Shown here one piece after another: positions 673 to 62,799 of a DNA stretch of 64,000 bases. The notes beneath the pieces are model-generated. The model saw nothing but the letters and a program-made list of their open reading frames with translations. It did not search any database and was not told the DNA's origin. This stretch comes from an uncultured Bacilli bacterium (GTDB lineage Bacteria; Bacillota_I; Bacilli_A; RF39; UBA660). How positions within the stretch are numbered: the stretch's first letter is position 1; every line of letters starts with the position of its first letter. The DNA lies in the NCBI GenBank assembly GCA_934086955.1, contig CAKOIN010000006.1, positions 2,159 to 66,158 of the forward strand. Direction: 5' to 3'. A program made the translations under genes and the position numbers.

Positions 673-1602
673 TTATAATTTATTCGTGATTTTTATTCCA
701 GTATAGTAATGTTTTAATATTTCATCATAACTATACCCATCATGTGCCATATAGTTTGCACCATATTGACTCATACCAACACCATGTCCATAACCAACAG
801 TATGAATATAAACAAAATCTTTATCATAAGTAATACTAAAATCAGTAGACCTAAGACCAAGTAAACCTCTAAATTTAGTACCCTTATAATTATTATTATT
901 TATTTTAATATTATTAACTCTATTCGTAGGACTCCTATCAATTTTAATATTACTTATTTTATCATCTTTAAGACTTAATTTTTTTAAAAAGTCAGACACT
1001 TTAATTTTAATATCTTTTTCATTATTATTAGATTTCTTATCCCAAGAAGAATCAACAGAAACTAAATAATCTAATTTTTGACTAAAAACATTTTCTACAT
1101 TTTCAGTTTTACCATTAGAAATAGAAAAATAAAATGCAATAATTACTTTATCATTATATGTCATATACTCACCTTTAGTATCATTTACTGCATTACTTAT
1201 CTTAGTATAATATTTATTATAATTACTTTTCCACTTTGATTTCATTTTATCATTATCAATATAACATTGATCACTAATAGTAGTTTTTACACTTTTACCT
1301 TTAGAAATTTTATATAATGCAAATGTTCTAGCTGCAACAGACATAGCTTTTAATGCTTCACTATTAAAAGAAGCTGGCATTTCACAAGCAACTACCCCTT
1401 TTACATACTCTTCCAAATCTAAATTAACAGTTTTATCATCAATTATTGCATTAACAGTAATAGTACTTTCTTTTTCATCTTCTTCTAAATAATTATTTAA
1501 AACTATATTACTATCTTCATCAACAATAAATTCTTTTTTATTACTATAACTCAACATTAAAAATAAAAACACAATAAAAAATACTATGAATTTTCTCTTC
1601 AT
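673..1602 (-). CDS. spoIID: Stage II sporulation protein D (SpoIID/LytB-domain lytic transglycosylase)
   Basis: Signal/TM N-terminus. Conserved SpoIID core EEYVKGVVACEMPASF..EALKAMSVAARTFAL. Confidence 0.7.
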   Translation of the reverse strand: MKRKFIVFFIVFLFLMLSYSNKKEFIVDEDSNIVLNNYLEEDEKESTITVNAIIDDKTVNLDLEEYVKGVVACEMPASFNSEALKAMSVAARTFALYKISKGKSVKTTISDQCYIDNDKMKSKWKSNYNKYYTKISNAVNDTKGEYMTYNDKVIIAFYFSISNGKTENVENVFSQKLDYLVSVDSSWDKKSNNNEKDIKIKVSDFLKKLSLKDDKISNIKIDRSPTNRVNNIKINNNNYKGTKFRGLLGLRSTDFSITYDKDFVYIHTVGYGHGVGMSQYGANYMAHDGYSYDEILKHYYTGIKITNKL

Positions 1603-21824: not shown

Positions 21825-21939
21825 ATTTTCAACCCCTTATATGAATAAATTTATTTAAAGTCAAAATATAATACCACATTTTTTTAAAAAGTCAAATCAA
21901 TTAAAAAAGACACTCATTTTACAAAATTCAATGAATATG

Positions 21940-22400
21940 ATATAATGTAGATGTATGGAGCATTATGCTAGTCAAACATACCACTAGAAGATGGGGCTAA
22001 AAATCCATCAATTGTGTAAAAATGATACTTTATATATTTTGCTTCTTTCGCCCAGATTGGGGTGGATATATAATTTTAGATTTAAGGAAAAGATGTAATG
22101 GCATATATCCGAATCCTTATATCAAATCGAAGAACACGAACACACATGTCGTGAGTGAATTATTGGGATAGAAATTGAAAAATAATTTGCAAAAGCGAAT
22201 AAAAGTGATTTATGTTTGTTTGGGAAAACCTCTAGTATGCCTATATTATAAGGATTGAAGTGCGGACTAAGTGGTGATCGAGTGATCATTATGGCAACAA
22301 ATGGTTAATTCTTTTAAAGAGAAATCGCCCTAGGGTAACCGAAGGTAAGAATTAGAGAAATTCAACTCGACCAAAGCCGTAAAATTAATTTATAATATTC
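21940..22400 (+). ncRNA. Candidate large structured ncRNA (OLE-RNA-like)
   Basis: About 450 nt, ORF-free and clearly GC-enriched relative to the flanks. Many local helices (GGATATAT...ATATATCC, CCCTAGGG, GATCgagtGATC). Immediately followed by a roughly 20 kDa 4-TM protein, the arrangement known for ole-oapA. Boundaries are approximate. Confidence 0.3.
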
Positions 22401-22425
22401 CATACACAAAACCAAAGGGAGTTAA

Positions 22426-22950
22426 ATGAAAAAAGATAATTGGATAATAAAGGCATTTTTAATGACTTTTTTTATAGCACTAATTTTCAGTAGTGCTTCA
22501 AATTTTATAATTGCAAAATATAACAATACAATATTACTTATACTACTATGTATTTTATTTATTGGCATAGGAATATTATTTGATATAATTGGAACAGCAG
22601 TATTAACTGCAAATGAAGCATCATTTCATGCTAAAAGTTCTAAAAAAATAAAAGGTTCTAAAGAAGCTGTAAGATTAATAAAAAATTCAAGTACAATTGC
22701 AAGTATATGTAATGATGTTATTGGAGATATATGTGGAATAGTTAGTGGTTCAGTAGGAGCTATGCTTGCTATTAATATATCAGTAAAATTTGATTTATCA
22801 ACAATAATTGTAACATTATTAACAAGTTCAATAATATCTTCACTAACAGTTGGAGGTAAAGCAATTGGTAAAAAATATGCAATTAAAAAAAGCGATACAA
22901 TAATATTTGTAGTAGCAAAAATATTAAATAAATTAAAAATAGAGAAATAA
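22426..22950 (+). CDS. Four-TM small membrane protein, possible OapA (OLE-associated protein A)
   Basis: 174 aa with 4 predicted TM helices. Lies directly downstream of the structured non-coding segment. Confidence 0.3.
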   Translation: MKKDNWIIKAFLMTFFIALIFSSASNFIIAKYNNTILLILLCILFIGIGILFDIIGTAVLTANEASFHAKSSKKIKGSKEAVRLIKNSSTIASICNDVIGDICGIVSGSVGAMLAINISVKFDLSTIIVTLLTSSIISSLTVGGKAIGKKYAIKKSDTIIFVVAKILNKLKIEK

Positions 22951-29670: not shown

Positions 29671-30048
29671 TTAATAAACTTTAGGAAAATCCATTAAACC
29701 TTCCGTCTTTCCTTCTCTCCAATATATTTTGTTATCTTTAACTTCAAAACTATAAGTTACTTTATATTTATAATCATCATCACTTTTTTGATAATAAAAT
29801 ACTAGTTCAGACATACCATCATTATTACTCTCAAATACAAAAGATGTATCATCATGACTTACTTCTTTTAAACTATCGTTATTTATTTCATAAGTCCAAT
29901 CTTTACTTTCATCAAGTTCTTTATAATCAATAGTGACAGTATCTTCAAATACACTTAATAGTTTATCATCAAGTTTTGGTTCATAAAACATAATACCAAC
30001 AAGTCCTACAATAGTTAAAACAAATATAATTACAAATCTCATTAACAC
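29671..30048 (-). CDS. Small secreted or membrane-anchored hypothetical protein
   Basis: N-terminal signal-anchor. No domain recognised. Confidence 0.3.
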   Translation of the reverse strand: MLMRFVIIFVLTIVGLVGIMFYEPKLDDKLLSVFEDTVTIDYKELDESKDWTYEINNDSLKEVSHDDTSFVFESNNDGMSELVFYYQKSDDDYKYKVTYSFEVKDNKIYWREGKTEGLMDFPKVY

Positions 30049-30570
30049 TCCTTAATAAACAAAAAGCAACCAGTCCTGATAAAACTTGATTGCTTCGAGT
30101 TTCGAAAAAACTAATTATGAATCATTTATTTTATAATAATAATTATAAAATAAATACTTCTAAATATTATCAGTATTTAGCATAATTACTTATCATTTTG
30201 AGTTTTTCTTTCTCAACGATATATCATTTGTCCTTAGTAGATAAGTATTCTATTTCTTAAATTAATAAGACTATTTATTATTTATATATAATAAGTAATA
30301 TTAATTTATAAATAAGATAGATACATAAATTTATAATAAATTAATATTATAAATAAACATATAATTGAAATATAAATTTTAATATACCAAATATAAATAA
30401 TGAAATAAATATAGAATTTTTTCACTAAAATAATTTAGATTATATTTTATTATATAATATATAAATAATTAAATTTAAATACCACTAATAATTTATATAA
30501 CCAATTATCTATTGGACAATATTATTATATGAATATTATTATCAAATGTCAATACTTTTTTAAAAAAAAT

Positions 30571-37638: not shown

Positions 37639-38139
37639 TTAAAATATTTTTTTAAAGAATTCTAATATCTTAAAATCATATTTTATCTCTTCATCAAAAT
37701 TATCATCTATCATACACAAAGGAGGATATAAAATACACCAATAATTATTTCCTTTTGCCTCTCCAATAGTTACTACTAATGATTCATATTCACCATCTTT
37801 ATAAGTAATTCCATTGTATTTTTTAACTGGAAAATAATTCATTCCATAATTAACCTCAAAATTCATATTATAGTTATTATTATTAAAAAGTCTCTCTATT
37901 TCTTCTTCAATATTACTTATATTATTAATAATATTATTTCTAGTAATTTCCTTATCATTATAATCATTAAAAACATATTTAGATATTTTATTAACAACCA
38001 TTTCTTTCATAAGAATATCTTTACTAGAATTACTATTAGAAATAACTCTAAATCTAATCGCATCATCATTACTATAATTTTCAATATTAAAAAGTATTAC
38101 ACCTATAATAAACAATATTATAATTAACAATTTTTTCAT
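37639..38139 (-). CDS. spoIIR: Stage II sporulation protein R-like
   Basis: IRFRVISNSNSSKDILMKEMVVNKI matches the SpoIIR hallmark (RFHVIANSDS..D..LKL.VRD). Syntenic with prmC-prfA, as in Bacillus. Confidence 0.5.
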   Translation of the reverse strand: MKKLLIIILFIIGVILFNIENYSNDDAIRFRVISNSNSSKDILMKEMVVNKISKYVFNDYNDKEITRNNIINNISNIEEEIERLFNNNNYNMNFEVNYGMNYFPVKKYNGITYKDGEYESLVVTIGEAKGNNYWCILYPPLCMIDDNFDEEIKYDFKILEFFKKIF

Positions 38140-42532: not shown

Positions 42533-43678
42533 TTATTCTTCTATTTTTTCTCCACAATTACTGCAGAATTTTCCAGTTACAGGAGTTCCGCATTTAGGAC
42601 AAACTTTTTCTTCTTTCTTTTCTTCTTTTTTAGCAAAGATTGTGCCCATCTCTGGTTGATTAGTTTCTGGTTTATAACCTTCAACATCAGAACCTTGATT
42701 TGCAGCATTCATCATAGAACCAGCTGCTCCACTTGCCATATTCATTCCCATGAATCCCATCATAGATCCATTTTCATTACTAGCAGCACTTCTAAGAGCA
42801 TCAGCTGAAGCAGAAGCCATTAATCCAGATTGTAAATTCTTATTAGAGAATATTGTAGCCTCATCTATCTTATTTACTTTAACCATTGATTCATCAGTTA
42901 AGTTAATATCACTTAAAGCAACATCAGTAACTTCTAAACCATAATTTTTTCTCCAAGATTCATCTAAACATACATTCATTTCATCTGAAATATCAGAATT
43001 ATATAATCCCATATCACCAAATGAAACTTTATTTTTTCTCATAACAACAGAAATTGCTTGAGTTAATTTTTCTACAAACTTACTTTGTAATTGACTACCA
43101 ACTACTTCTTCATAAGTAACAGTATCAGATGGATTAGCACCAATAACACTATTTACTAAAAGAATTGGATCAACTACTTTAAAAGCATATTCACCAAAGA
43201 ATGTTACTTCTAACATACCATATTTTTCATCAGTAATTTTCTTTGGTTGTGGTGAACCAAACTTATTACCAGGAATATTTAATAAATTTACATAGTAAAC
43301 TCTTTGATCCTTAGCTGTTTGACCTCCATAAGTAAATCTCTTACCAATAGTCTTAAATGTATCAATAATGCCTTTTCCAAGACCACCAGTAAATATACTT
43401 GGTTCACTACTAGTATCAAAATAGAAAGTACCAGCATCTGCAGTAAATTCCTTTATTTCTCCATTTTCAATAATCATCATTGCCATTCCTTGTGGAACTA
43501 CAATTGTACTACCATTAGTAATAATTCCTTCAGAAGGATTTTTATTACCTTTTCCATGATTAACAATTCCTCTTTGTATTAAAACATTTTTAGAAATTGT
43601 AGGACATGTCACAAACTCCTTAAATTGATCACCTAAGGCAGTAGTTGTTGCCTCAGATAAAGCTTTAATAAGACCCAT
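42533..43678 (-). CDS. SPFH/band-7-like protein with C-terminal CxxC...CxxC zinc ribbon (YdjI-like)
   Basis: N-terminal SPFH-like domain. C-terminal CPKCGTPVTGKFCSNCGE. Confidence 0.5.
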   Translation of the reverse strand: MGLIKALSEATTTALGDQFKEFVTCPTISKNVLIQRGIVNHGKGNKNPSEGIITNGSTIVVPQGMAMMIIENGEIKEFTADAGTFYFDTSSEPSIFTGGLGKGIIDTFKTIGKRFTYGGQTAKDQRVYYVNLLNIPGNKFGSPQPKKITDEKYGMLEVTFFGEYAFKVVDPILLVNSVIGANPSDTVTYEEVVGSQLQSKFVEKLTQAISVVMRKNKVSFGDMGLYNSDISDEMNVCLDESWRKNYGLEVTDVALSDINLTDESMVKVNKIDEATIFSNKNLQSGLMASASADALRSAASNENGSMMGFMGMNMASGAAGSMMNAANQGSDVEGYKPETNQPEMGTIFAKKEEKKEEKVCPKCGTPVTGKFCSNCGEKIEE

Positions 43679-43766: not shown

Positions 43767-43788
43767 AAGAACTCTAATTAGAGTTCTT
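43767..43788 (-). terminator. Perfect 22-nt palindrome AAGAACTCTAA|TTAGAGTTCTT overlapping the stop of the ParB/Noc gene
   Basis: Followed on the minus strand by a T-run. Confidence 0.5.
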
Positions 43789-44973
43789 ATCAATTTCAAT
43801 TATTATTTGATATGAATCAGTTAAATCCAATTCAGTTGTAGTAATTAAATTACTAACTTCATCTAAACTAGAAATAAAATCTCTTACTTTATTAATTACA
43901 TTAGGCAAGTTAACTGAACCATCTTCTTCAAGTAATGAATCTTTATCTAGATATTCTTCTTCACTAGGAACTACTGGTTCTTCATAACTAACAGGTACCG
44001 TTTCAGTAACTGTACTTGATGGTACAACCGGATTTTCAGGTAAAACTTCAGTAGTTTTTGCAACTATAGGAGTTAATTCTTGTGAATTATCTATTGCATT
44101 AGCATAAGATTCCTTATCAAAACTTGTTTGTGTAATATTAGGGGTAGAAGCTGTTTGAAATGGATTTATAATTTCAGATTCATCAACATACTCAGTCATT
44201 GCTGCTTTTGCTTCAGGTTCAATTTTAACAACTTCTGGCACTCTTATATCTAAATATTCTTCAACTTGTTTATTTCCTAACATTTGTTCTTTTGATTCAA
44301 CTTTTGGTTCAATTTTTAAAAATCTTTTAATATCATCAGGTAATTCTTCTTGTTCTTTATTTCTATTTAATATTGCACTTATTTCTTCTTCTGTTTGCTT
44401 TACAGTAAGTTTTTCAGTAATAATTTTATTTAATAAATTCTTTTGCATATCAGCATCTGGAAGTGATAATAAACTTCTAGCATGTCTTTCTGATATTCTA
44501 TTATACAAAAGAGCATTTTGTACTTCTTTTGGTAAATTTAATAGTCTCATCTTATTAGCAATAGACGATTGACTTACACCTAATTTAGAAGCAATATCTT
44601 CTTGTGTGAATCCTCTATCCATTAACTTTTTATATGATTGTGCTTCCTCAATAACAGATAAATTCTTTCTTTGTAAATTTTCTAATAATGCTATCTCAGC
44701 ACTTGTATTATCATCTGTATTATTAATAATCGCAGGAATCTTTTTAAGACCAGCTAAACAAGAAGCCTTATATCTTCTTTCACCAGCAATAATCTCATAC
44801 TTATCCCCGATATTTCTAAGTACAATAGGTTGAATAACACCATATTTTATAATAGAATTAGCAAGCTCATTTAACTCTCTTTCATCAAAAGCTAACCTTG
44901 GTTGAAATCTATTCGGAATAATATCCTCAATAGGTATATAATAAATTTTTTCTTTTTCTTTGTTTTCTTCCAT
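43774..44973 (-). CDS. noc: ParB/Noc-family protein, more Noc-like than Spo0J-like, with a roughly 150-aa low-complexity C-terminal extension
   Basis: Noc-type motifs are IPNRFQPR, GVIQPIVLR, GERRYKAS, an HTH helix ending QSSIANKMRLL (Noc QSTIANKLRLL, Spo0J RPHIANHLRLL) and ISERHARSL. Sits immediately downstream of rsmG, the noc position in Bacillus. No soj/spo0J follows. Confidence 0.5.
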   Translation of the reverse strand: MEENKEKEKIYYIPIEDIIPNRFQPRLAFDERELNELANSIIKYGVIQPIVLRNIGDKYEIIAGERRYKASCLAGLKKIPAIINNTDDNTSAEIALLENLQRKNLSVIEEAQSYKKLMDRGFTQEDIASKLGVSQSSIANKMRLLNLPKEVQNALLYNRISERHARSLLSLPDADMQKNLLNKIITEKLTVKQTEEEISAILNRNKEQEELPDDIKRFLKIEPKVESKEQMLGNKQVEEYLDIRVPEVVKIEPEAKAAMTEYVDESEIINPFQTASTPNITQTSFDKESYANAIDNSQELTPIVAKTTEVLPENPVVPSSTVTETVPVSYEEPVVPSEEEYLDKDSLLEEDGSVNLPNVINKVRDFISSLDEVSNLITTTELDLTDSYQIIIEIDKNSN

Positions 44974-51150: not shown

Positions 51151-52623
51151 TCATTTGTATTCTATTAAATTTACCAATGAATTTCTAAGTTCTACAAAAT
51201 TTTGATATTTATTTATATATTTATATATATCTTTTAAAAATTCTTCTCCACTTACAATTCTTCCATCTTTTAAATAAACTATAGAATCAATAGAAATTGA
51301 ATCTAATACATTATTTTCTTTAAAATATTCTTTAACAGTAGTTTTTTTGCCATCAAAAGTATCAACAACTTTATTTCCATATTCAATATTTAAAGGAAAC
51401 ATAAATACTTCTTTTTTTGAAAAATCTTCTTCCTCTTTGATATTTAATTCTACTTTATAGTTATTTTTAATAGCAAATTTTAATATTTTATTTACTTCAT
51501 CTAATGGAAATCCCATTTTTTTATAAGCGAAGAATCCACTTGAAAATAATAACATTAATTGATATATATGATCATTATTCATATTTAAAAAATTTAAGTT
51601 TTGAGCAACATTTTTATAGTTATCAGATAAAATCTTACTATATATACTATAAAAATAACTATAATACTTACTACTTTCTTCTTTTTTTATGACATTTTCA
51701 TAAAATTTTGAATATATAGCATTTAAATAATCTTCACTACCAAATGAAATAATCCTTTTATCATCTTTATGTTCAAAATATATCATCTTATCTTCATCTA
51801 ATTTAAGATTAAACTCACTCATTTCAAAACTTCCTATATCTAAAGATGAGTTATAATCAAAAAGCTCAAATACATCTTTATTATTAATAATAATATCTAA
51901 TGTTTTATATATTATTAAAAGCATCCTTTTTTTATTTAATTTTCTTTCTATTTTATACTTATTTAATATATATTCATAATAATCTTTTAATATAGAAAAA
52001 TTTTCAATTTCAAAATTTTCTTTCTTAAAATCACTAAAATATTCGTATAAAAGCAACATATAAAAATTTTTAAAATTATAAGGTCTATATTCAGAAGAAA
52101 TTCCTAACAAATTAGTTTGTGGTATGAAAGGAATTATTCTTGATTTAACTTCATTTTCGATATCATTATCACTTTTAAAGAAATTAATTATCTTTCTTGC
52201 ATTATTTACATTATCCACTCTTATTTGTAAAAGAGGATTTTTAACTACCTTCATTAACTTAATTTTAGAATTTATTTTATTTTCTATTAAAAAATTCAAA
52301 ATTTTTATTGTTATTTTTTCATAATTATTTTCAAAAACTGGTACATCAATTATGATATCAGGTATTGAAACATTCTGTAAATTATATTCTAGGTTTATTT
52401 TATAAGAATATTTAAATTCTTTATATGAGAATTTTGCCTTACTTTCGGGCAAAATTGACAATATCTGTTCAAATATTTTTTTGGTTATTTGAATTATATT
52501 TTTATTTAAATCACCTATTTTTACATTAAAACTTAAACATGTATTTATAAATTCTTCAAAATTTTTTTGTTCATAAATTGTATATAACTTTTTAAAATAA
52601 TCTTCTATCTGCATTCTATCCAT
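51151..52623 (-). CDS. Hypothetical 490-aa protein inserted between rpmH and dnaA
   Basis: Long uninterrupted ORF with no motif recognisable by eye. Its position interrupts the normally adjacent rpmH-oriC-dnaA arrangement. Confidence 0.35.
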   Translation of the reverse strand: MDRMQIEDYFKKLYTIYEQKNFEEFINTCLSFNVKIGDLNKNIIQITKKIFEQILSILPESKAKFSYKEFKYSYKINLEYNLQNVSIPDIIIDVPVFENNYEKITIKILNFLIENKINSKIKLMKVVKNPLLQIRVDNVNNARKIINFFKSDNDIENEVKSRIIPFIPQTNLLGISSEYRPYNFKNFYMLLLYEYFSDFKKENFEIENFSILKDYYEYILNKYKIERKLNKKRMLLIIYKTLDIIINNKDVFELFDYNSSLDIGSFEMSEFNLKLDEDKMIYFEHKDDKRIISFGSEDYLNAIYSKFYENVIKKEESSKYYSYFYSIYSKILSDNYKNVAQNLNFLNMNNDHIYQLMLLFSSGFFAYKKMGFPLDEVNKILKFAIKNNYKVELNIKEEEDFSKKEVFMFPLNIEYGNKVVDTFDGKKTTVKEYFKENNVLDSISIDSIVYLKDGRIVSGEEFLKDIYKYINKYQNFVELRNSLVNLIEYK

Positions 52624-52659
52624 ATTTATCTTCTCTCCTACACCATTTTATCATAAAAA

Positions 52660-52850
52660 AAATATTATGTTAACTTATTTTTGAATTTATTATGTTAACT
52701 TTATCAACAATGTATCAACATTTTATGTTAACTTATCAACAAGTTATTAACAATTCAAGTTTACATAATAATTTTAAATTGTTGATATTGTTGATAACTA
52801 TAAAAAATAATCTAAATTAAAGGAAAAAAATGTTTACAAAATGTGGATAT
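52660..52850. promoter_or_regulatory. oriC DnaA-box cluster upstream of dnaA
   Basis: TTATCAACA at about 52701 and 52733, GTATCAACA at about 52712, the complement TGTTGATAA at about 52789, TGTGGATAT at about 52841, and TATGTTAAC repeated three times. Confidence 0.6.
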
Positions 52851-52950
52851 CTTGTTAATATAAGTGTTAATAAATTTTTTTGTTTTGACATTAAAAAAAG
52901 TTGATTTATAATTTATCTTAGAAAGACAAAAAGAAAGGAAGTAAATATAT

Positions 52951-54342
52951 ATGGATATTGAAGATATATGGGTAAAATTCTTATCAAAAATAAAGTCAAA
53001 AGTATCTTTGATGTCATATAATTACATATTCAAAGATCTTAGAATTCATTCTTATGACGATAGTAAAATAGTTATAATAGTACCAAACAATGAATTATTA
53101 CTACAAAATATAACTAAAAACTATGTAACATTAATTGAAGATACATTGAATGATATAACAAATGATACATGTACTATTGAATATATCTTTCAAAAAGATG
53201 TTGATAAATTGTCAAAAAAGAAAGAAAAACCAAGAATTATTGAAGAAAATATAGAGGAAGACTTTAATGATTTAAAAAATTATAAATATTCAAGTAATTT
53301 TAATCCAAAACATACTTTTGATACTTTTATAGTTGGAGACTCAAATAAATTAGCATATGGCACAGCAATGGCAGTAGCACAAAATCCAGGAAAACTATAT
53401 AATCCATACTTTATTTATGCTAAAAGTGGACTTGGTAAGACACATTTAATGCATGCAATAGGTAATTACATTGTTCTTCATTCAGATAAGAGAGTCCTAT
53501 ATATTAAAGCAGAAGAATTCGCAAATGATTACAGAGCTATAATAAATACTAAAAATAAATATGGTAACAATATAACTTATTTAGAAGCATTTAGAGAAAA
53601 ATATAGAGATGTAGATGTATTAATGATAGATGATATTCAATTTTTAGATAATAAAGTAAAATCACAAATGGAATTCACTAATACATTTAATAGTTTATAT
53701 GAAAATGAAAAACAAATAGTAATAGCTTCAGATAGATCAATAAATGATTACGAATTATTAGAAGAAAGGCTTAAAACAAGATTTAGATGGGGCTTAACTT
53801 CATCCATTAATCCACCAGATATAGACTTAAAGAAAAATATTATAAAAAATAAAATAATGGTATATAACTTTGATTTAGATATTAAAGATGAGGTGGTTGA
53901 ATATATAGCAAGTAATTGTGGAAGTAGTGTAAGAGATTTAGAAGGAGCCATAACAAGAGTGGTTGCCTATAAAGCAACATTCAATATATCAGAAGTAACA
54001 TTAGATATAGCAAGAGAAGCTCTACAAGAATTTGTTTCAAAAACAGTATACAGAACAAATTCAGTAAGTAAAATAATAGATATAGTTGCTAAATATTTTG
54101 GCTTAGAACCTGCGATGTTAAAAGGTAAAATGAAGAAAAAGAATGTAACTGATGCAAGAGCAATTGCAATGTATTTAAGTCGAATAATGACTGATGAAAG
54201 CCTGCAAAGAATAGGATTAGAATTTGGAGGAAGAGATCATTCAACTGTTATATATTCACATGAAAAAATTTCTAACGAATTAAAAACAAATACAACACTT
54301 CAAGAAGAAATTAAAACATTAAAAGAAAAAATTTGTGAATAA
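52951..54342 (+). CDS. dnaA: Chromosomal replication initiator DnaA
   Basis: AAA+ Walker A GLGKTHL. C-terminal DnaA-box-binding domain (RAIAMYLSR...GGRDHSTV). Confidence 0.95.
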   Translation: MDIEDIWVKFLSKIKSKVSLMSYNYIFKDLRIHSYDDSKIVIIVPNNELLLQNITKNYVTLIEDTLNDITNDTCTIEYIFQKDVDKLSKKKEKPRIIEENIEEDFNDLKNYKYSSNFNPKHTFDTFIVGDSNKLAYGTAMAVAQNPGKLYNPYFIYAKSGLGKTHLMHAIGNYIVLHSDKRVLYIKAEEFANDYRAIINTKNKYGNNITYLEAFREKYRDVDVLMIDDIQFLDNKVKSQMEFTNTFNSLYENEKQIVIASDRSINDYELLEERLKTRFRWGLTSSINPPDIDLKKNIIKNKIMVYNFDLDIKDEVVEYIASNCGSSVRDLEGAITRVVAYKATFNISEVTLDIAREALQEFVSKTVYRTNSVSKIIDIVAKYFGLEPAMLKGKMKKKNVTDARAIAMYLSRIMTDESLQRIGLEFGGRDHSTVIYSHEKISNELKTNTTLQEEIKTLKEKICE

Positions 54343-54480
54343 ATTAACAAGTTACTAACATCTTAACAACGATAAGTTTACATAAAAATGTAGTATTTAT
54401 CGTATTATAAATGAGTTATCAACAATATTAACACTCTATAATAATAATAAATATATATAATAATAAGGAGGAAGAAAATT
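54343..54480. promoter_or_regulatory. dnaA-dnaN intergenic DnaA box(es) plus AT-rich unwinding element
   Basis: GAGTTATCAACAATATT box followed by ATAATAATAAATATATATAATAATAA. Confidence 0.45.
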
Positions 54481-55677: not shown

Positions 55678-55726
55678 AATAGTGTGTGCTATTATAGTGG
55701 CCATTAAAAAGAAAGGGGGAAAAATA

Positions 55727-56182
55727 ATGAATTATGAAATTACTTATGATACACAAGTAATAGCACCTATTGATAAGAACACAGCAAAAGTAATAGAAAC
55801 TGATGCAGAATATATAATAGAAACTCCCGTGTTAAATATTCTTGAACATAGTTGTGAATATTTTGGAAGTTCTTATGAAGGAAGAAAAGAAGGTACTAAG
55901 AAGTTGTTAGGCATAACACATAAATCTCCAATAATAGTTGAAGAAAGCAGAAAAATAATATTTTTTCCAACTTCATCAGCCGAAAATGAAGATTGTATAT
56001 GGATTAATTTAGAAAAGATAGATAAATATTTCAAATTAGGTCCAAAAAAATCAGCAATAAGATTTCAAAATGGTGATTTTATAGAATTTGATGTATCATA
56101 TGGATCACTTTCTAATCAAATTTTAAGAGCTACTAGATTAAAATTTATACTTGAAGAAAGAATATTAAAAAAAGATAATTAA
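55727..56182 (+). CDS. comK: ComK-family competence transcription factor homolog
   Basis: LEHSCEYFGSSYEGRKEGTKKLLGITHKSPIIVEESRKIIFFPTSS, DCIWINL and VSYGSLSNQILRATRLK align to B. subtilis ComK (VDRSCRFFGSSYAGRKAGT...HKPPIMVDPSNQIFLFPTLS...CGWI...ISYNSFENQVYRTAWLR). Start taken at ATG 55727 after AAAGGGGGA. The track ORF begins at an upstream GTG. Confidence 0.6.
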   Translation: MNYEITYDTQVIAPIDKNTAKVIETDAEYIIETPVLNILEHSCEYFGSSYEGRKEGTKKLLGITHKSPIIVEESRKIIFFPTSSAENEDCIWINLEKIDKYFKLGPKKSAIRFQNGDFIEFDVSYGSLSNQILRATRLKFILEERILKKDN

Positions 56183-59298: not shown

Positions 59299-61731
59299 AT
59301 GGATAGAATAGTACAAAATAATATAGTTAAAGAAGTCAAAGATTCATTTCTAGATTATTCCATGAGTGTTATAGTTGCAAGAGCTATACCTGATCTAAGA
59401 GACGGTTTAAAGCCTGTTCACAGAAGAATTTTATACTCAATGTATGAATCAGGTTATACCCCAGATAAACAACACAGAAAATGTGCTAGAATCGTCGGAG
59501 ATGTAATGGGAAAATACCATCCACATGGAGACTCATCAATATATGAAGCAATGGTTAGAATGGCACAAGATTTTAGTTATAGATATATGCTTGTGGATGG
59601 ACACGGAAACTTTGGTAACATGGATGGTGATGGCGCAGCAGCAATGCGTTACACAGAAGCAAGATTATCAAAAGTAAGTTTAGAATTGTTAAGAGATATA
59701 AATAAAAATACAGTAGATTTTATACCAAACTTTGATGAAACAGAAAAAGAACCAGTAGTAATTCCAAGTAGATTTCCAAACATTTTAGTAAATGGAACTA
59801 TGGGAATTGCAGTAGGTATGGCAACAAATATTCCACCACATAACTTAGGAGAAGTAATTGATGGTTGTATTGCATATATAGATAATCCACAAATAACTAC
59901 TGATGAAATGATGCAATATATAAAAGGTCCTGATTTTCCAACAGGAGCAATAATACTTGGAAATAGTGGAATAAAAAAAGCCTATGAAACAGGAAGAGGA
60001 ACAATTACTATTAGATGTAAAGCTGAAATAGAAGAATCTAATAATAGAAATAGAATAATAATTACAGAAATTCCTTACGGAGTTAATACATTAGAATTAA
60101 AAAATAGAATAGCTGAACTAGTTAGAGATAAAGTTTTAGAAGGAATTGCTGATTACCATGAAGAAACAAATATTGAAAATGGTGTTAAAATAGTAATTAC
60201 ATTAAAAAAAGAAGCAAATGCAAATGTTGTATTAAATAATTTATATAAACACACTCAATTACAATCAACATTCGGAATAATATTCTTAATGTTAGATCAA
60301 GGTCAACCAAGAACATTGGGAATTGTTGATATTATTTCTAAATATATAGATTATCAAAGAGAAATAATAGTTAGAAGAACAAGATTTGATTTAGCAAAAG
60401 CAGAAGCAAGGGCACATATTTTAGAAGGATATAAAATCGCATTAGACCATATAGATGATATTATTAAAATAATCAAAGAAAGTCAAAGCGATGTACTTGC
60501 AAAACAAAGATTAATAGAAAAATATAGATTTAGCGAGATTCAAGCTGATGCAATACTAGAGTTAAAATTAAGAAGATTAACTGGATTAGAAAGAGAAAAA
60601 ATAGAAGAAGAATTAGCTAATTTATTAAAATTAATTGAAGAATATAAATCAATACTAGCAAACGAACAAAAAGTATTAGATATAATTAAGAAAGAAATGC
60701 TTGAGATTAAAGAAAAATTCGGAGATGAAAGAAGAACAAAAATTGATAATACAGCAATAGAATATATTGAAGATGAATCTTTAATACCACAAGAAGATAT
60801 AATAATAACTTTAACAAATAAAAATTATATAAAAAGAATTCCAAAAGATACATACAAAGTACAAAATAGAGGCGGAGTTGGTATAAAAGGAATGACTACA
60901 ACTGAAGAAGACTTCGTAGAACAGTTAATTTCACTAAATACACATGACTACTTATTATTCTTCACAAATAAAGGAAAAGTATATAGACTAAAAGGATACA
61001 AAATTCCAGAATTTTCAAGAACAGCAAAAGGTTTACCTATCGTTAATATATTATCACTAGAAAAAGATGAAAAAATCAACACAATGATAACAATAAGTGA
61101 AAAAGATACATACAAATGTTTGCTTTTTAGTACTAAAAACGGATTAATTAAGAGAACTTTAATAAGCGAATTTGATAATATTAGACAAAGCGGAAAAATT
61201 GCAATTACTTTAAAAGATAATGACGAGTTAATATCAGTAAAGAAAACAACAGGTAATGATCAAATATTTATGTGTTCATCAAACGGAAGAATGGCAAGAT
61301 TCAATGAAGAAGAAATAAGAATAATGGGAAGAACAGCTTCAGGAGTTAGAGGAATTAATTTATCAAATGACATATGTGTTGGTACTGAAGTGTCTGAACC
61401 AGGAAAAATGTTATTAGTAGTTACTGAAAATGGTTACGGTAAGAAAACTTCTATGGACGAATATAGAGAAACAAAAAGAGGAAGTAAAGGTGTAAAGACA
61501 TTAAATATTACTGATAAAAACGGCAAAATAGTAGGATTTAAATCAACTGATAATGAAAAAGATCTAATGATTATAACTGAAAATGGAGTAATAATTAGAA
61601 TGGATGTTAATTCAATATCACAAATGGGCAGAGTAACAAAAGGTGTAAGACTAATAAATCTTAAAGAGGATAATAAGGTTGCTTCAATATCAATTTTAGA
61701 AAAAGAAAATGAAATTGAAGAATCAGAATAA
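59299..61731 (+). CDS. gyrA: DNA gyrase subunit A
   Basis: Active-site Tyr region [14 protein letters not shown]-like HPHGDSS, C-terminal beta-pinwheel. Confidence 0.95.
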
Positions 61732-61743
61732 ACAAAAATAAAA

Positions 61744-62605
61744 AATGTTCCATGTGGAACATTTTTTATTATTAAAAAAATTATTTCCCGGGAAATAATT
61801 TTAAATTAATATAGAATATCAAAAAAAAGTTATTAACAATGTTCCACGTGAAACATAGTATATCTATTAGCATAAAATTTTGATTTTGATTTTTAAATAT
61901 ATTATTTTGGATGTTAACCAATCAAAACAATTAATAATGTTCCACGTGGAACATTATTAACAATTAAACTATTTAAAAAATATTTATTTTTTGTTTTAAT
62001 AATTTAAATAATAGGATTATTTATGATAGAGTAAAAAAATATTTTTTTATAATGTTTCACGTGAAACATTATTAACACTATAATATAAAATATTTATATT
62101 GCTTAATTATCTATTTCTAAAATTGATTTATAAAGTTTTATAATAAAAATATAAGATATAAATATATATGCATTAAAAGAATAGTTTTCACTCAAAATTA
62201 TATAATGTTCCATGTGGAACATTATTAACAGAAAAAAAATAATTATAGAGAATACTTAACTAAAAAACAATTTAATATTAACTAACGATTAACATATAAT
62301 ATAAATTAATTAAAAAAGAATAAAATTTATAATACACATTTAAACTAAAATTAAATAATGTTCCACATGGAACATTATAAATGAAATATTTTAAATTAGG
62401 ACTAAAGCAACTAAAAAATTATAATAACTTTGCTAGAAATGGGTAAACCTATTATTTTTAACAATACAACATTAATATTACATATGGAATACTAATATGA
62501 ATATAAAAATAATAAAAAATATTAACAAGATATTTAATATAACATAATAAGATTTATAATTGATAACATTTAAAAAGTTATTAACAATGTTCCACGTGGA
62601 ACATA
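61744..62605. repeat. parS: Array of seven parS-type 16-bp palindromes (TGTTNCACGTGNAACA) in non-coding DNA
   Basis: Cores at about 61746-61761 (TGTTCCATGTGGAACA), 61840-61855 (TGTTCCACGTGAAACA), 61938-61953 (TGTTCCACGTGGAACA), 62053-62068 (TGTTTCACGTGAAACA), 62206-62221 (TGTTCCATGTGGAACA), 62359-62374 (TGTTCCACATGGAACA) and 62588-62603 (TGTTCCACGTGGAACA). Most are embedded in a longer unit TTATTAACAATG...CATTATTAACA. Confidence 0.7.
61781..61798. promoter_or_regulatory. Perfect Noc-binding-site-type palindrome TTATTTCCCGGGAAATAA (NBS consensus ATTTCCCGGGAAAT)
   Basis: Exact 14-bp NBS core within an 18-bp perfect palindrome, 20 bp after the first parS. Confidence 0.5.
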
Positions 62606-62695
62606 CAATAAATAACAAAAATAACACAGATAAAAATTCTTAACAAAAAAATAAAATTATTATTGTAAAAGAATATAACTTATGATAATATATAC

Positions 62696-62776
62696 ATGTG
62701 CAACAAGGTTTAGTGAACCAGGTCAGAGTTGGAAGACAGCAGCCTTAAGCTTTTAATCTTGTGTGCACATTTTATT
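62696..62776 (+). ncRNA. ffs: Small-type SRP RNA (4.5S/scRNA)
   Basis: ACCAGGUCAGAGUUGGAAGACAGCAGCC matches the domain IV consensus ACCAGGUCAGGUCCGGAAGGAAGCAGCC, including the GGAA tetraloop. Closed by an ATGTGCA..CAAGG / CTTG..TGCACAT stem and followed by a T-run. Located next to tadA/dnaX as in Bacillus. Confidence 0.55.
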
Positions 62777-62799
62777 TATATTAAAATACGAAAAGGTGT

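Follow-up and report, generated by a model that had tools for sequence, protein, structure and literature searches.

The DNA analyzed here is a window of 64 kb (the whole stretch of 64,000 nucleotides, from contig CAKOIN010000006.1) from the genome of an uncultured Bacilli bacterium, and its main subject is the spacer that separates gyrA from a small signal recognition particle (SRP) RNA gene. This spacer is 955 bp long and non-coding, its longest open reading frame (ORF) encoding a low-complexity peptide of 49 aa. It contains seven copies of the parS palindrome and one Noc-binding site (NBS), arranged as follows:

59299-61731, plus strand: gyrA (Pfam: DNA_topoisoIV and six GyrA C-terminal repeats), upstream border of the spacer
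61746-61761: parS copy 1, TGTTCCATGTGGAACA, one mismatch, core of a 15-bp hairpin
61782-61797: NBS, TATTTCCCGGGAAATA, perfect over 16 bp, between parS copies 1 and 2
61840-61855: parS copy 2, TGTTCCACGTGAAACA, identical to the Bacillus subtilis spo0J site, preceded by TTATTAACA-A
61938-61953: parS copy 3, TGTTCCACGTGGAACA, perfect palindrome, TTATTAACA downstream
62053-62068: parS copy 4, TGTTTCACGTGAAACA, identical to the consensus, TTATTAACA downstream
62206-62221: parS copy 5, TGTTCCATGTGGAACA, one mismatch, TTATTAACA downstream
62359-62374: parS copy 6, TGTTCCACATGGAACA, one mismatch
62588-62603: parS copy 7, TGTTCCACGTGGAACA, preceded by TTATTAACA-A, the SRP RNA gene starting 84 bp further downstream
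62687-62783, plus strand: small SRP RNA gene (Rfam, 61 bits), downstream border of the parS cluster

A pattern search of the window identified four exact matches to TGTTNCACGTGNAACA (at 61840, 61938, 62053 and 62588) and a total of seven when up to two mismatches were allowed. The three additional sites (61746, 62206 and 62359) carry one mismatch each, changing CG to TG or to CA in the central CACGTG. Dinucleotide-preserving shuffles gave a chance expectation of 0.07 matches in 64 kb, and no match with two mismatches or fewer was found in the rest of the window, outside 61746-62603. Successive copies start 94, 98, 115, 153, 153 and 229 bp apart, i.e., about one site per 130 bp, in a spacer whose GC content outside the sites is 12.6%. 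The first-pass annotation of this DNA had described seven parS palindromes, irregularly spaced by 94-229 bp, in a non-coding stretch of 0.9 kb after gyrA, with two copies perfectly matching the B. subtilis site or the consensus. The counts, the measured spacings, the lack of any ORF above 49 aa and the sequences of copies 2 and 4 agree with this description on every point. The same annotation called the cluster a tandem array, which holds for the clustering but not for a head-to-tail organization: Tandem Repeats Finder detected no repeat unit in the spacer, so that it lacks the structure of a tandem-repeat (iteron-like) centromere, and the sequence common to the copies is restricted to a 20-bp core, AATGTTCCACGTGGAACATT. 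As for the 35-bp "extended unit" proposed at the same time, TTATTAACA is indeed found beside five of the seven copies, on one side only (it precedes copies 2 and 7 and follows copies 3-5), but the full unit is a composite that no single copy carries. The Rfam search found no known RNA family inside the spacer. A coding role was rejected on the basis of the 49-aa longest ORF, and so was a promoter role for the TTAACA-17-TAnnAT elements that surround copies 2 and 7 (18 promoter-like sites compared to 16.9 in shuffles).

The conservation of this cluster was examined in relatives retrieved by a GyrA-based scan keeping one genome per species, which provided 80 loci with GyrA proteins 70-97% identical to that of the window. 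All are uncultured gut metagenome-assembled genomes (MAGs) labelled Bacilli, Tenericutes, Mycoplasmatota or Erysipelotrichaceae, with GC contents of 22-33%. All the exact parS 16-mers found in these 80 relatives (314 out of 314) are located at most 2.5 kb downstream of gyrA, none being found in the remaining 1.31 Mb of their flanking DNA. This supports the initial proposal of a dedicated centromere block on the origin side. For 76 of the 80 relatives, the cluster is positioned by reference to the gyrA stop codon, and the first parS lies no more than 60 nt from this codon in 53 of these 76. The number of sites ranges from 0 to 14, with at least two in 56 of the 64 loci for which at least 1.5 kb of downstream sequence is available.

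Across 310 sites, the conserved part consists of the 16-mer and of the next base (T in 98%), the flanks being otherwise merely A/T-rich. Since conservation is limited to the 16-mer and one base, these sites are likely protein-binding sites and not copies of a repeated element. The closest relatives (L001 to L007) carry four to eight parS sites in spacers that are unrelated in sequence. True tandem arrays are found in other relatives: 13.5 units of 40 bp with one parS per unit in L060, eight units of 82 bp in L025 (13088-13753) and 13 units of 83 bp in L026 (13044-14136). The array of L026 follows the SRP RNA gene, and that of L014 surrounds it. The range of 0-14 sites, from fresh arrays to decayed clusters, points to local duplication followed by decay. 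A dispersed palindromic repeat, similar to repetitive extragenic palindromic sequences (REP) or miniature inverted-repeat transposable elements (MITE), was rejected, as no copies were found elsewhere in the 64 kb or in the 1.31 Mb of flanks of the relatives; furthermore, in the clade loci L081 and L084, no copy of the palindrome is present outside the spacer. The suggestion that the block derives from a mobile repeat must therefore be abandoned, the visible repeats being local tandem duplications. In these loci, parS behaves as a protein-binding site under selection that increases in number through local duplication, and not as a mobile or dispersed repeat.

The window thus contains palindromes that match parS, that are located on the origin side in numbers far above chance, and whose sequence is conserved while their flanks diverge. 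A similar cluster occupies the same position in 80 related gut bacteria, which makes the spacer between gyrA and the SRP RNA gene very probably the chromosomal centromere of this uncultured gut Bacilli lineage of 25% GC, in which it would act as a compact ParB loading cluster.

The first copy differs from the others by its potential as a terminator. The segment at about 61737-61770 can form a hairpin with a 15-bp stem (-16.2 kcal/mol, z = -5.05, none of 200 shuffles being as good), preceded by an A-run and followed by the T-run TTATTATT, 15 nt past the gyrA stop codon; this hairpin includes only three G-C pairs, and a consensus terminator scan marks copy 1 on the minus strand. Together with the position of the first parS within 60 nt of the stop codon in most relatives, this folding makes plausible the earlier view of copy 1 as the gyrA terminator, and we consider it a candidate bidirectional intrinsic terminator with a dual role. 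Such a role leaves the six other copies unexplained. One could go further and propose that all the palindromes are mainly RNA or DNA hairpins (terminators, insulators) or generic palindromic repeats, their match to parS being incidental. The strong folding of copy 1 would fit this explanation, as would the four hairpin-plus-T sites detected by the terminator scan in the region compared to 0.2 expected. However, what is conserved is the exact parS of 16-18 bp and not a hairpin potential with free sequence, a T-rich tail is found at only 20 of the 53 gyrA-proximal first sites of the relatives, the copies share one spacer where there is nothing to terminate between them, and no dispersed copies were found in the window or in the loci of the relatives. 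We therefore regard this explanation as very improbable.

The position of the cluster relative to the replication origin is given by two further features:

52624-52950: predicted oriC, the spacer upstream of dnaA, located at the GC-skew minimum and containing a group of TTATCAACA and TTATTAACA boxes
52951-54342, rightward: dnaA

The window contains a predicted replication origin. The cumulative GC skew reaches its minimum at 52-54 kb, and Pfam searches identified dnaA, dnaN, recF, gyrB and gyrA among the rightward genes and rnpA, yidC, jag, mnmE, mnmG and rsmG among the leftward ones. With the origin located at dnaA and at the GC-skew minimum, the parS cluster begins about 8.8 kb into the right replichore; beyond the SRP RNA gene come a gene encoding a TadA-like deaminase and then dnaX. 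The absence of an rRNA operon noticed previously was verified for the window, whose 64 kb contain neither rRNA nor tRNA genes. Two ORFs of this region deserve mention. One, located between dnaN and recF (55682-56182, plus strand), belongs to the ComK family (Pfam, E = 2.6e-45); in many Firmicutes, this interval is occupied by a small S4-like yaaA/remB gene. The other (51151-52623, minus strand, 490 aa) lies between rnpA and dnaA, immediately to the left of the predicted oriC; it shows a weak TPR/ARM-like match and belongs to no NCBIfam family.

The TTATTAACA motif is shared by the predicted origin and the parS cluster. When the window and L001 to L007 are considered together, the 9-mer TTAT[TC]AACA adjoins 22 of the 43 parS sites, at offsets of -10 or +16, compared to a background of 0.00055 per position; in the window, the stretch bearing this flank beside parS extends from 61830 to 62586. 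The 9-mers abutting parS could be variant DnaA boxes, which would make this a DnaA-box cluster fused to the centromere. It could accordingly be proposed that, in the subclade of the window only, the cluster has a second function as a group of DnaA boxes, either titrating DnaA or positioning it close to the origin. Besides the fixed offsets, this proposal would account for the clustering of the same 9-mers in the spacers upstream of dnaA (52701-52873) and between dnaA and dnaN (54416-54424), and for the scarcity of the canonical box TTATNCACA, found once in 64 kb for 6.1 expected; the cluster includes five TTATTAACA, each one mismatch away from TTATNCACA, all on the plus strand and abutting parS. 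However, TTATTAACA is also common inside genes (22 in the window), and the flank was found at no parS site of the other 72 relatives. Because it is missing from these relatives, the flank is perhaps a relic of unit duplication. A function in DnaA titration or positioning is therefore unlikely.

The protein expected to read the parS sites was sought in the window, which includes a single gene of the ParB family:

43774-44973, minus strand: only ParB-family gene of the window (399 aa), directly after rsmG

The encoded protein scores 279 bits on the NCBIfam Noc model (below its cut-off of 315) compared to 172 on the generic ParB model, and its best relatives among solved structures are Noc proteins (7NFU, 208 bits; 7OL9, 186 bits), Spo0J/ParB structures reaching 134-160 bits. 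Four residues set the DNA specificity of these proteins, R173-T179-A184-G201 in ParB and Q-K-K-R in Noc (Jalal et al., PMC7383237). According to the same work, adenine 1 of the NBS is the base recognized by Q173 and cytosine 6 the one recognized by R201, a single lysine at position 179 or 184 is sufficient, and R173 and G201 are invariant among ParB orthologues (PMC7383237). The protein of the window reads ...VSQSSIANKMRLLNL...ISERHAR..., which corresponds to Q-K-N-R and thus to residues of the Noc type. The same combination is found in 119 of 120 close orthologues (among the matches listed) and in the copies of L018, L020 and L021. In the wider family (best 150 representatives at 50% identity), R201 is present in all 150 proteins and K179 in nearly all, while Q173 was recognized by motif in 104 and read from the sequence in the other 46. 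The Q-K-N-R variant is not listed in the part of the supplements of PMC7383237 that was accessible to us. On the basis of Q-K-N-R, of the score on the Noc model and of the Noc structure matches, this protein is therefore of the Noc type and is predicted to read the NBS and not parS.

This Noc-type protein keeps the motifs of the cytidine triphosphate (CTP) clamp (PNRFQPR, GERR and ENLQR). In the alignment with 7NFU, it starts at the equivalent of residue 19 of the Noc protein of G. thermoleovorans; the 10-aa amphipathic membrane helix is therefore missing. The reading frame is taken at its full possible length, and the gap between it and rsmG measures just 78 bp; the family has a median of 16 aa before box I (147 representatives). 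In B. subtilis, Noc requires this helix for membrane binding and for nucleoid occlusion (PMC8429893). Members of the family carry a variable low-complexity tail of 20-600 aa between the DNA-binding and C-terminal domains, which gives total lengths of 227-821 aa, and it is because of these hypervariable tails that clustering at 50% identity breaks the family into more than 150 groups. FF[NDSG]F motifs, which we take to resemble the FSRFFGLGE membrane helix of B. subtilis Noc, are present in 30 of 150 family tails (for example NKFFNFLEDE in L020) and could represent a membrane or partner motif that has moved. The position that would be that of soj-spo0J, immediately following the Noc-like gene, is taken in the window by a gene for an SPFH/band-7 protein with a C-terminal zinc ribbon (42533-43678, minus strand); in more distant relatives, the position after the Noc-like gene is occupied by a penicillin-binding-protein gene.

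The first-pass annotation had made the existence of a ParB with parS specificity a test of the centromere, and no such protein is encoded inside the window, whose sole ParB-family gene is of the Noc type. Searches using tblastn with the Noc-like protein and a search for the ParA Walker A motif detected neither a second ParB nor a ParA in the window and the 80 loci. A hidden Markov model (HMM) built from the family and applied to 5,889 ORFs (window and 84 loci) retrieved only one Noc-like gene per genome and no further member, while detecting the true ParBs of two unrelated control loci (E = 1e-67 and 1e-50). In the protein-database search, the 120 matches listed were all Noc-like orthologues of at least 79% identity, and the best 150 hits of a search among 50%-identity representatives all belong to the same Noc-like family. 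Metagenomes were also scanned for the recognition helix of a Bacilli-type ParB, encoded in AT-rich codons, without any match from the clade; the two contigs matched were one Pelagibacter-like and one from a Firmicute of 36% GC.

Several observations weigh against a centromere function of the spacer. Three of the seven sites bear a central mismatch, and the mapping of parS in the genome itself concerns the 64-kb window alone. Neither a ParB with R173 and G201 nor a ParA is encoded in the window or, in the 80 relatives, within 10 kb on either side of gyrA. In B. subtilis, soj-spo0J is located between noc and rpsF-ssb; the corresponding stretch lies entirely inside the window and contains neither gene. 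Finally, three distant members of the family keep the rsmG-noc arrangement without any ParB or ParA beside noc, and the two contigs among them that reach past noc carry a penicillin-binding-protein gene and neither soj nor spo0J. The comparative evidence supports the identification of the spacer as a centromere well, but the case is not complete, no reader protein having turned up in the window or in the loci of the relatives.

It could be envisaged that there is no separate ParB and that parS is read by the single Noc-like protein or by an unrelated protein, the centromere being run by a re-purposed paralogue. The recovery of the Noc-like gene alone by an HMM that detected its controls, the lack of soj-spo0J at their ancestral place inside the window and the failure of the metagenome scan to return anything from the clade are all consistent with this scenario. 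However, Q173 and R201 specify bases of the NBS and exclude parS, R173 and G201 being reported as invariant in ParB (PMC7383237), and all the 270 family members examined have the Q...R combination. Furthermore, the searches covered about 5% of one genome and origin-side pieces of the others, the pattern used on metagenomes was so strict that only two contigs matched in the whole collection, and Staphylococcus aureus offers the precedent of a parB gene present without a parA partner (PMC5540599). A centromere devoid of its own ParB is therefore improbable. It is likely that another part of the genome encodes a parS-specific ParB, since the exact universal parS is kept at several hundred sites in 80 species, since a Q...R protein should not read parS and since S. 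aureus shows that parB can exist apart from parA.

The Noc-type protein has its own predicted target in the cluster. The NBS at 61782-61797, overlooked by the earlier annotation, is the only match of the window, even with two mismatches to the 14-bp core allowed, and CCCGGG occurs just twice in the 64 kb. It is located 36 bp from parS copy 1 (centre to centre), and the same parS-NBS-parS order is found after gyrA in L001 to L007. Among the 127 exact NBS 16-mers of the relatives, 92 are located in the 167 kb of array zones and 35 in the other 1.31 Mb, i.e., an enrichment of about 20-fold in the array zones. Each of the 82-83 bp units of L025 and L026 contains one NBS and one parS (or one-mismatch parS). 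These units also share a third conserved block, AAAACAGTGGAAAAA, between NBS and parS, which could be a further binding site. No NBS is present in the array zone of 28 of the 64 relatives. The 35 NBS scattered over 1.31 Mb of origin-side DNA amount to about one per 37 kb.

These data suggest, tentatively, a composite platform on which a helix-less Noc paralogue would be loaded jointly with ParB and would play a role in origin organization or anchoring instead of nucleoid occlusion. The location of the single NBS of the window within the cluster, in an order kept in L001 to L007, the enrichment in array zones, the association of both sites in one tandem unit (eight copies in L025 and 13 in L026) and the lack, in this Noc family, of the N-terminal helix needed by the B. 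subtilis protein for membrane binding and occlusion (PMC8429893) all argue for it. However, the window has one NBS for seven parS, the scattered NBS of the relatives recall ordinary Noc systems, and both kinds of sites may merely accumulate in one permissive non-coding spacer. The coupling is facultative, since the array zone of 28 of the 64 relatives lacks any NBS. Such a platform extends the centromere function of the spacer and does not exclude it. It is conceivable, though we would not favor it, that the centromere of the clade is an interleaved parS/NBS array partly read by a helix-less, long-tailed Noc, the extreme version being that no canonical ParB exists. If so, Noc would have been recruited away from nucleoid occlusion into origin organization or segregation. 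A literature search, which was not exhaustive, yielded no description of NBS arrays or of composites of parS and NBS.

Taking the spacer as a ParB loading cluster, its functioning can be proposed from the established ParB cycle. ParB dimers would recognize each 18-bp palindrome A-TGTTNCACGTGNAACA-T, and CTP binding would close them into clamps that slide away onto neighbouring DNA. The presence of seven sites within 0.9 kb would multiply loading and allow the locus to tolerate the loss of any single site, and transcription of gyrA would be stopped at the terminator hairpin of copy 1 before it enters the loading zone. With the resulting ParB complex in place, the origin region would be marked as the site of SMC loading and of segregation. 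The product of the Noc-type gene (43774-44973) would load at the NBS, so that ParB and Noc clamps may spread over the same origin-side DNA. Local duplication would enlarge the cluster, and decay would reduce it. What the sequences show directly is the sites with their statistics and conservation, together with the Noc type of the nearby gene; that proteins bind and spread there and recruit SMC, and that a parS-specific ParB is encoded at another locus, is what we infer.

Reviews on ParABS systems ask what causes parS sites to cluster, by what route a centromere expands and why the copy number varies although a single site is sufficient (PMC7333895, PMC5815017). The lineage studied here offers a natural series in this respect, with 0-14 sites at the gyrA stop codon in 80 species, from fresh 40-bp arrays to decayed and irregular clusters such as that of the window. 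The co-clustering of NBS and parS and the helix-less Noc suggest a link between two paralogous CTP-clamp systems, of which no description was found in the literature searched. In addition, the parS cluster on the gyrA side provides a simple marker of the origin region for abundant gut MAGs of small genome size.

Other features of the window are unrelated to the cluster. An OLE (ornate, large, extremophilic) RNA is present at 21939-22419 on the plus strand (219 bits for a gathering score of 50) in this small-genome gut MAG, followed by a 174-aa ORF (22426-22950). A PGK RNA motif (30160-30252, minus strand, 82 bits) lies upstream of a 125-aa ORF without Pfam match (29671-30048). Homologues of SpoIIR (37639-38139, minus strand) and SpoIID (673-1602, minus strand) indicate a sporulation program, in a lineage that often carries the label Tenericutes or Mycoplasmatota in public records.

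Clusters of parS near the origin have been documented in other chromosomes: five strong sites within 5 kb in Caulobacter crescentus (PMC5815017), 10 sites in 35 kb in Corynebacterium glutamicum (PMC7083940), about 20-23 near ori in Streptomyces coelicolor and Listeria innocua (PMC7333895) and several per 5-kb window in gut Firmicutes (PMC10197239). Because of these precedents (PMC7333895, PMC5815017, PMC10197239), the premise of the earlier annotation that parS sites of Firmicutes are only scattered singly was overstated, about 22 being found near ori in L. innocua alone. The cluster described here resembles those of Caulobacter, C. glutamicum, Streptomyces and Listeria by its 16-bp palindrome, its origin-side location, its several close and mostly intergenic sites and, presumably, ParB-CTP loading and SMC recruitment. 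It differs from them by: (i) its density (about 130 bp per site, and 40 bp in L060, compared to 1-3.5 kb), (ii) its confinement to one spacer with a fixed landmark, the gyrA stop codon, throughout the lineage, and (iii) the absence of a parAB operon nearby and the interleaved Noc sites. According to a modelling study, a single tight parS cluster is more typical of plasmids (PMC10387095). The Spo0J-parS system of B. subtilis, which belongs to the same bacterial class, shares with the window an identical site (copy 2) and the location in the origin region. However, its 10 sites are dispersed, the four strongest being 5-39 kb apart (PMC5815017), one site is inside spo0J and soj-spo0J follows noc, whereas all the sites seen here lie within 0.9 kb and soj-spo0J is missing from that position.

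The comparison with the Noc-NBS systems of B. subtilis and S. aureus is also one of likeness and difference. An exact NBS, a Noc-type protein encoded by a gene beside rsmG, the residues Q173, K179 and R201 and the CTP-binding motifs are common to both. Known Noc systems have from 41 (S. aureus) to about 70 scattered NBS and no arrays (PMC5540599, PMC7383237), whereas here NBS pile up beside parS, with up to 13 in tandem. Moreover, the protein described here lacks the 10-aa membrane helix (PMC8429893), has N and not K at position 184 and carries a low-complexity tail. The scattered NBS in the flanks of the relatives nevertheless recall these known systems.

Lastly, the arrays of some relatives are reminiscent of the tandem-repeat centromeres of plasmids, such as sopC of plasmid F, which consists of 12 repeats of 43 bp. 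Like sopC, the arrays of L060, L025 and L026 are made of head-to-tail units (40-83 bp) with one binding site each. Unlike these plasmid centromeres, the cluster described here is chromosomal, uses the universal chromosomal parS and, in the window, is irregularly spaced.

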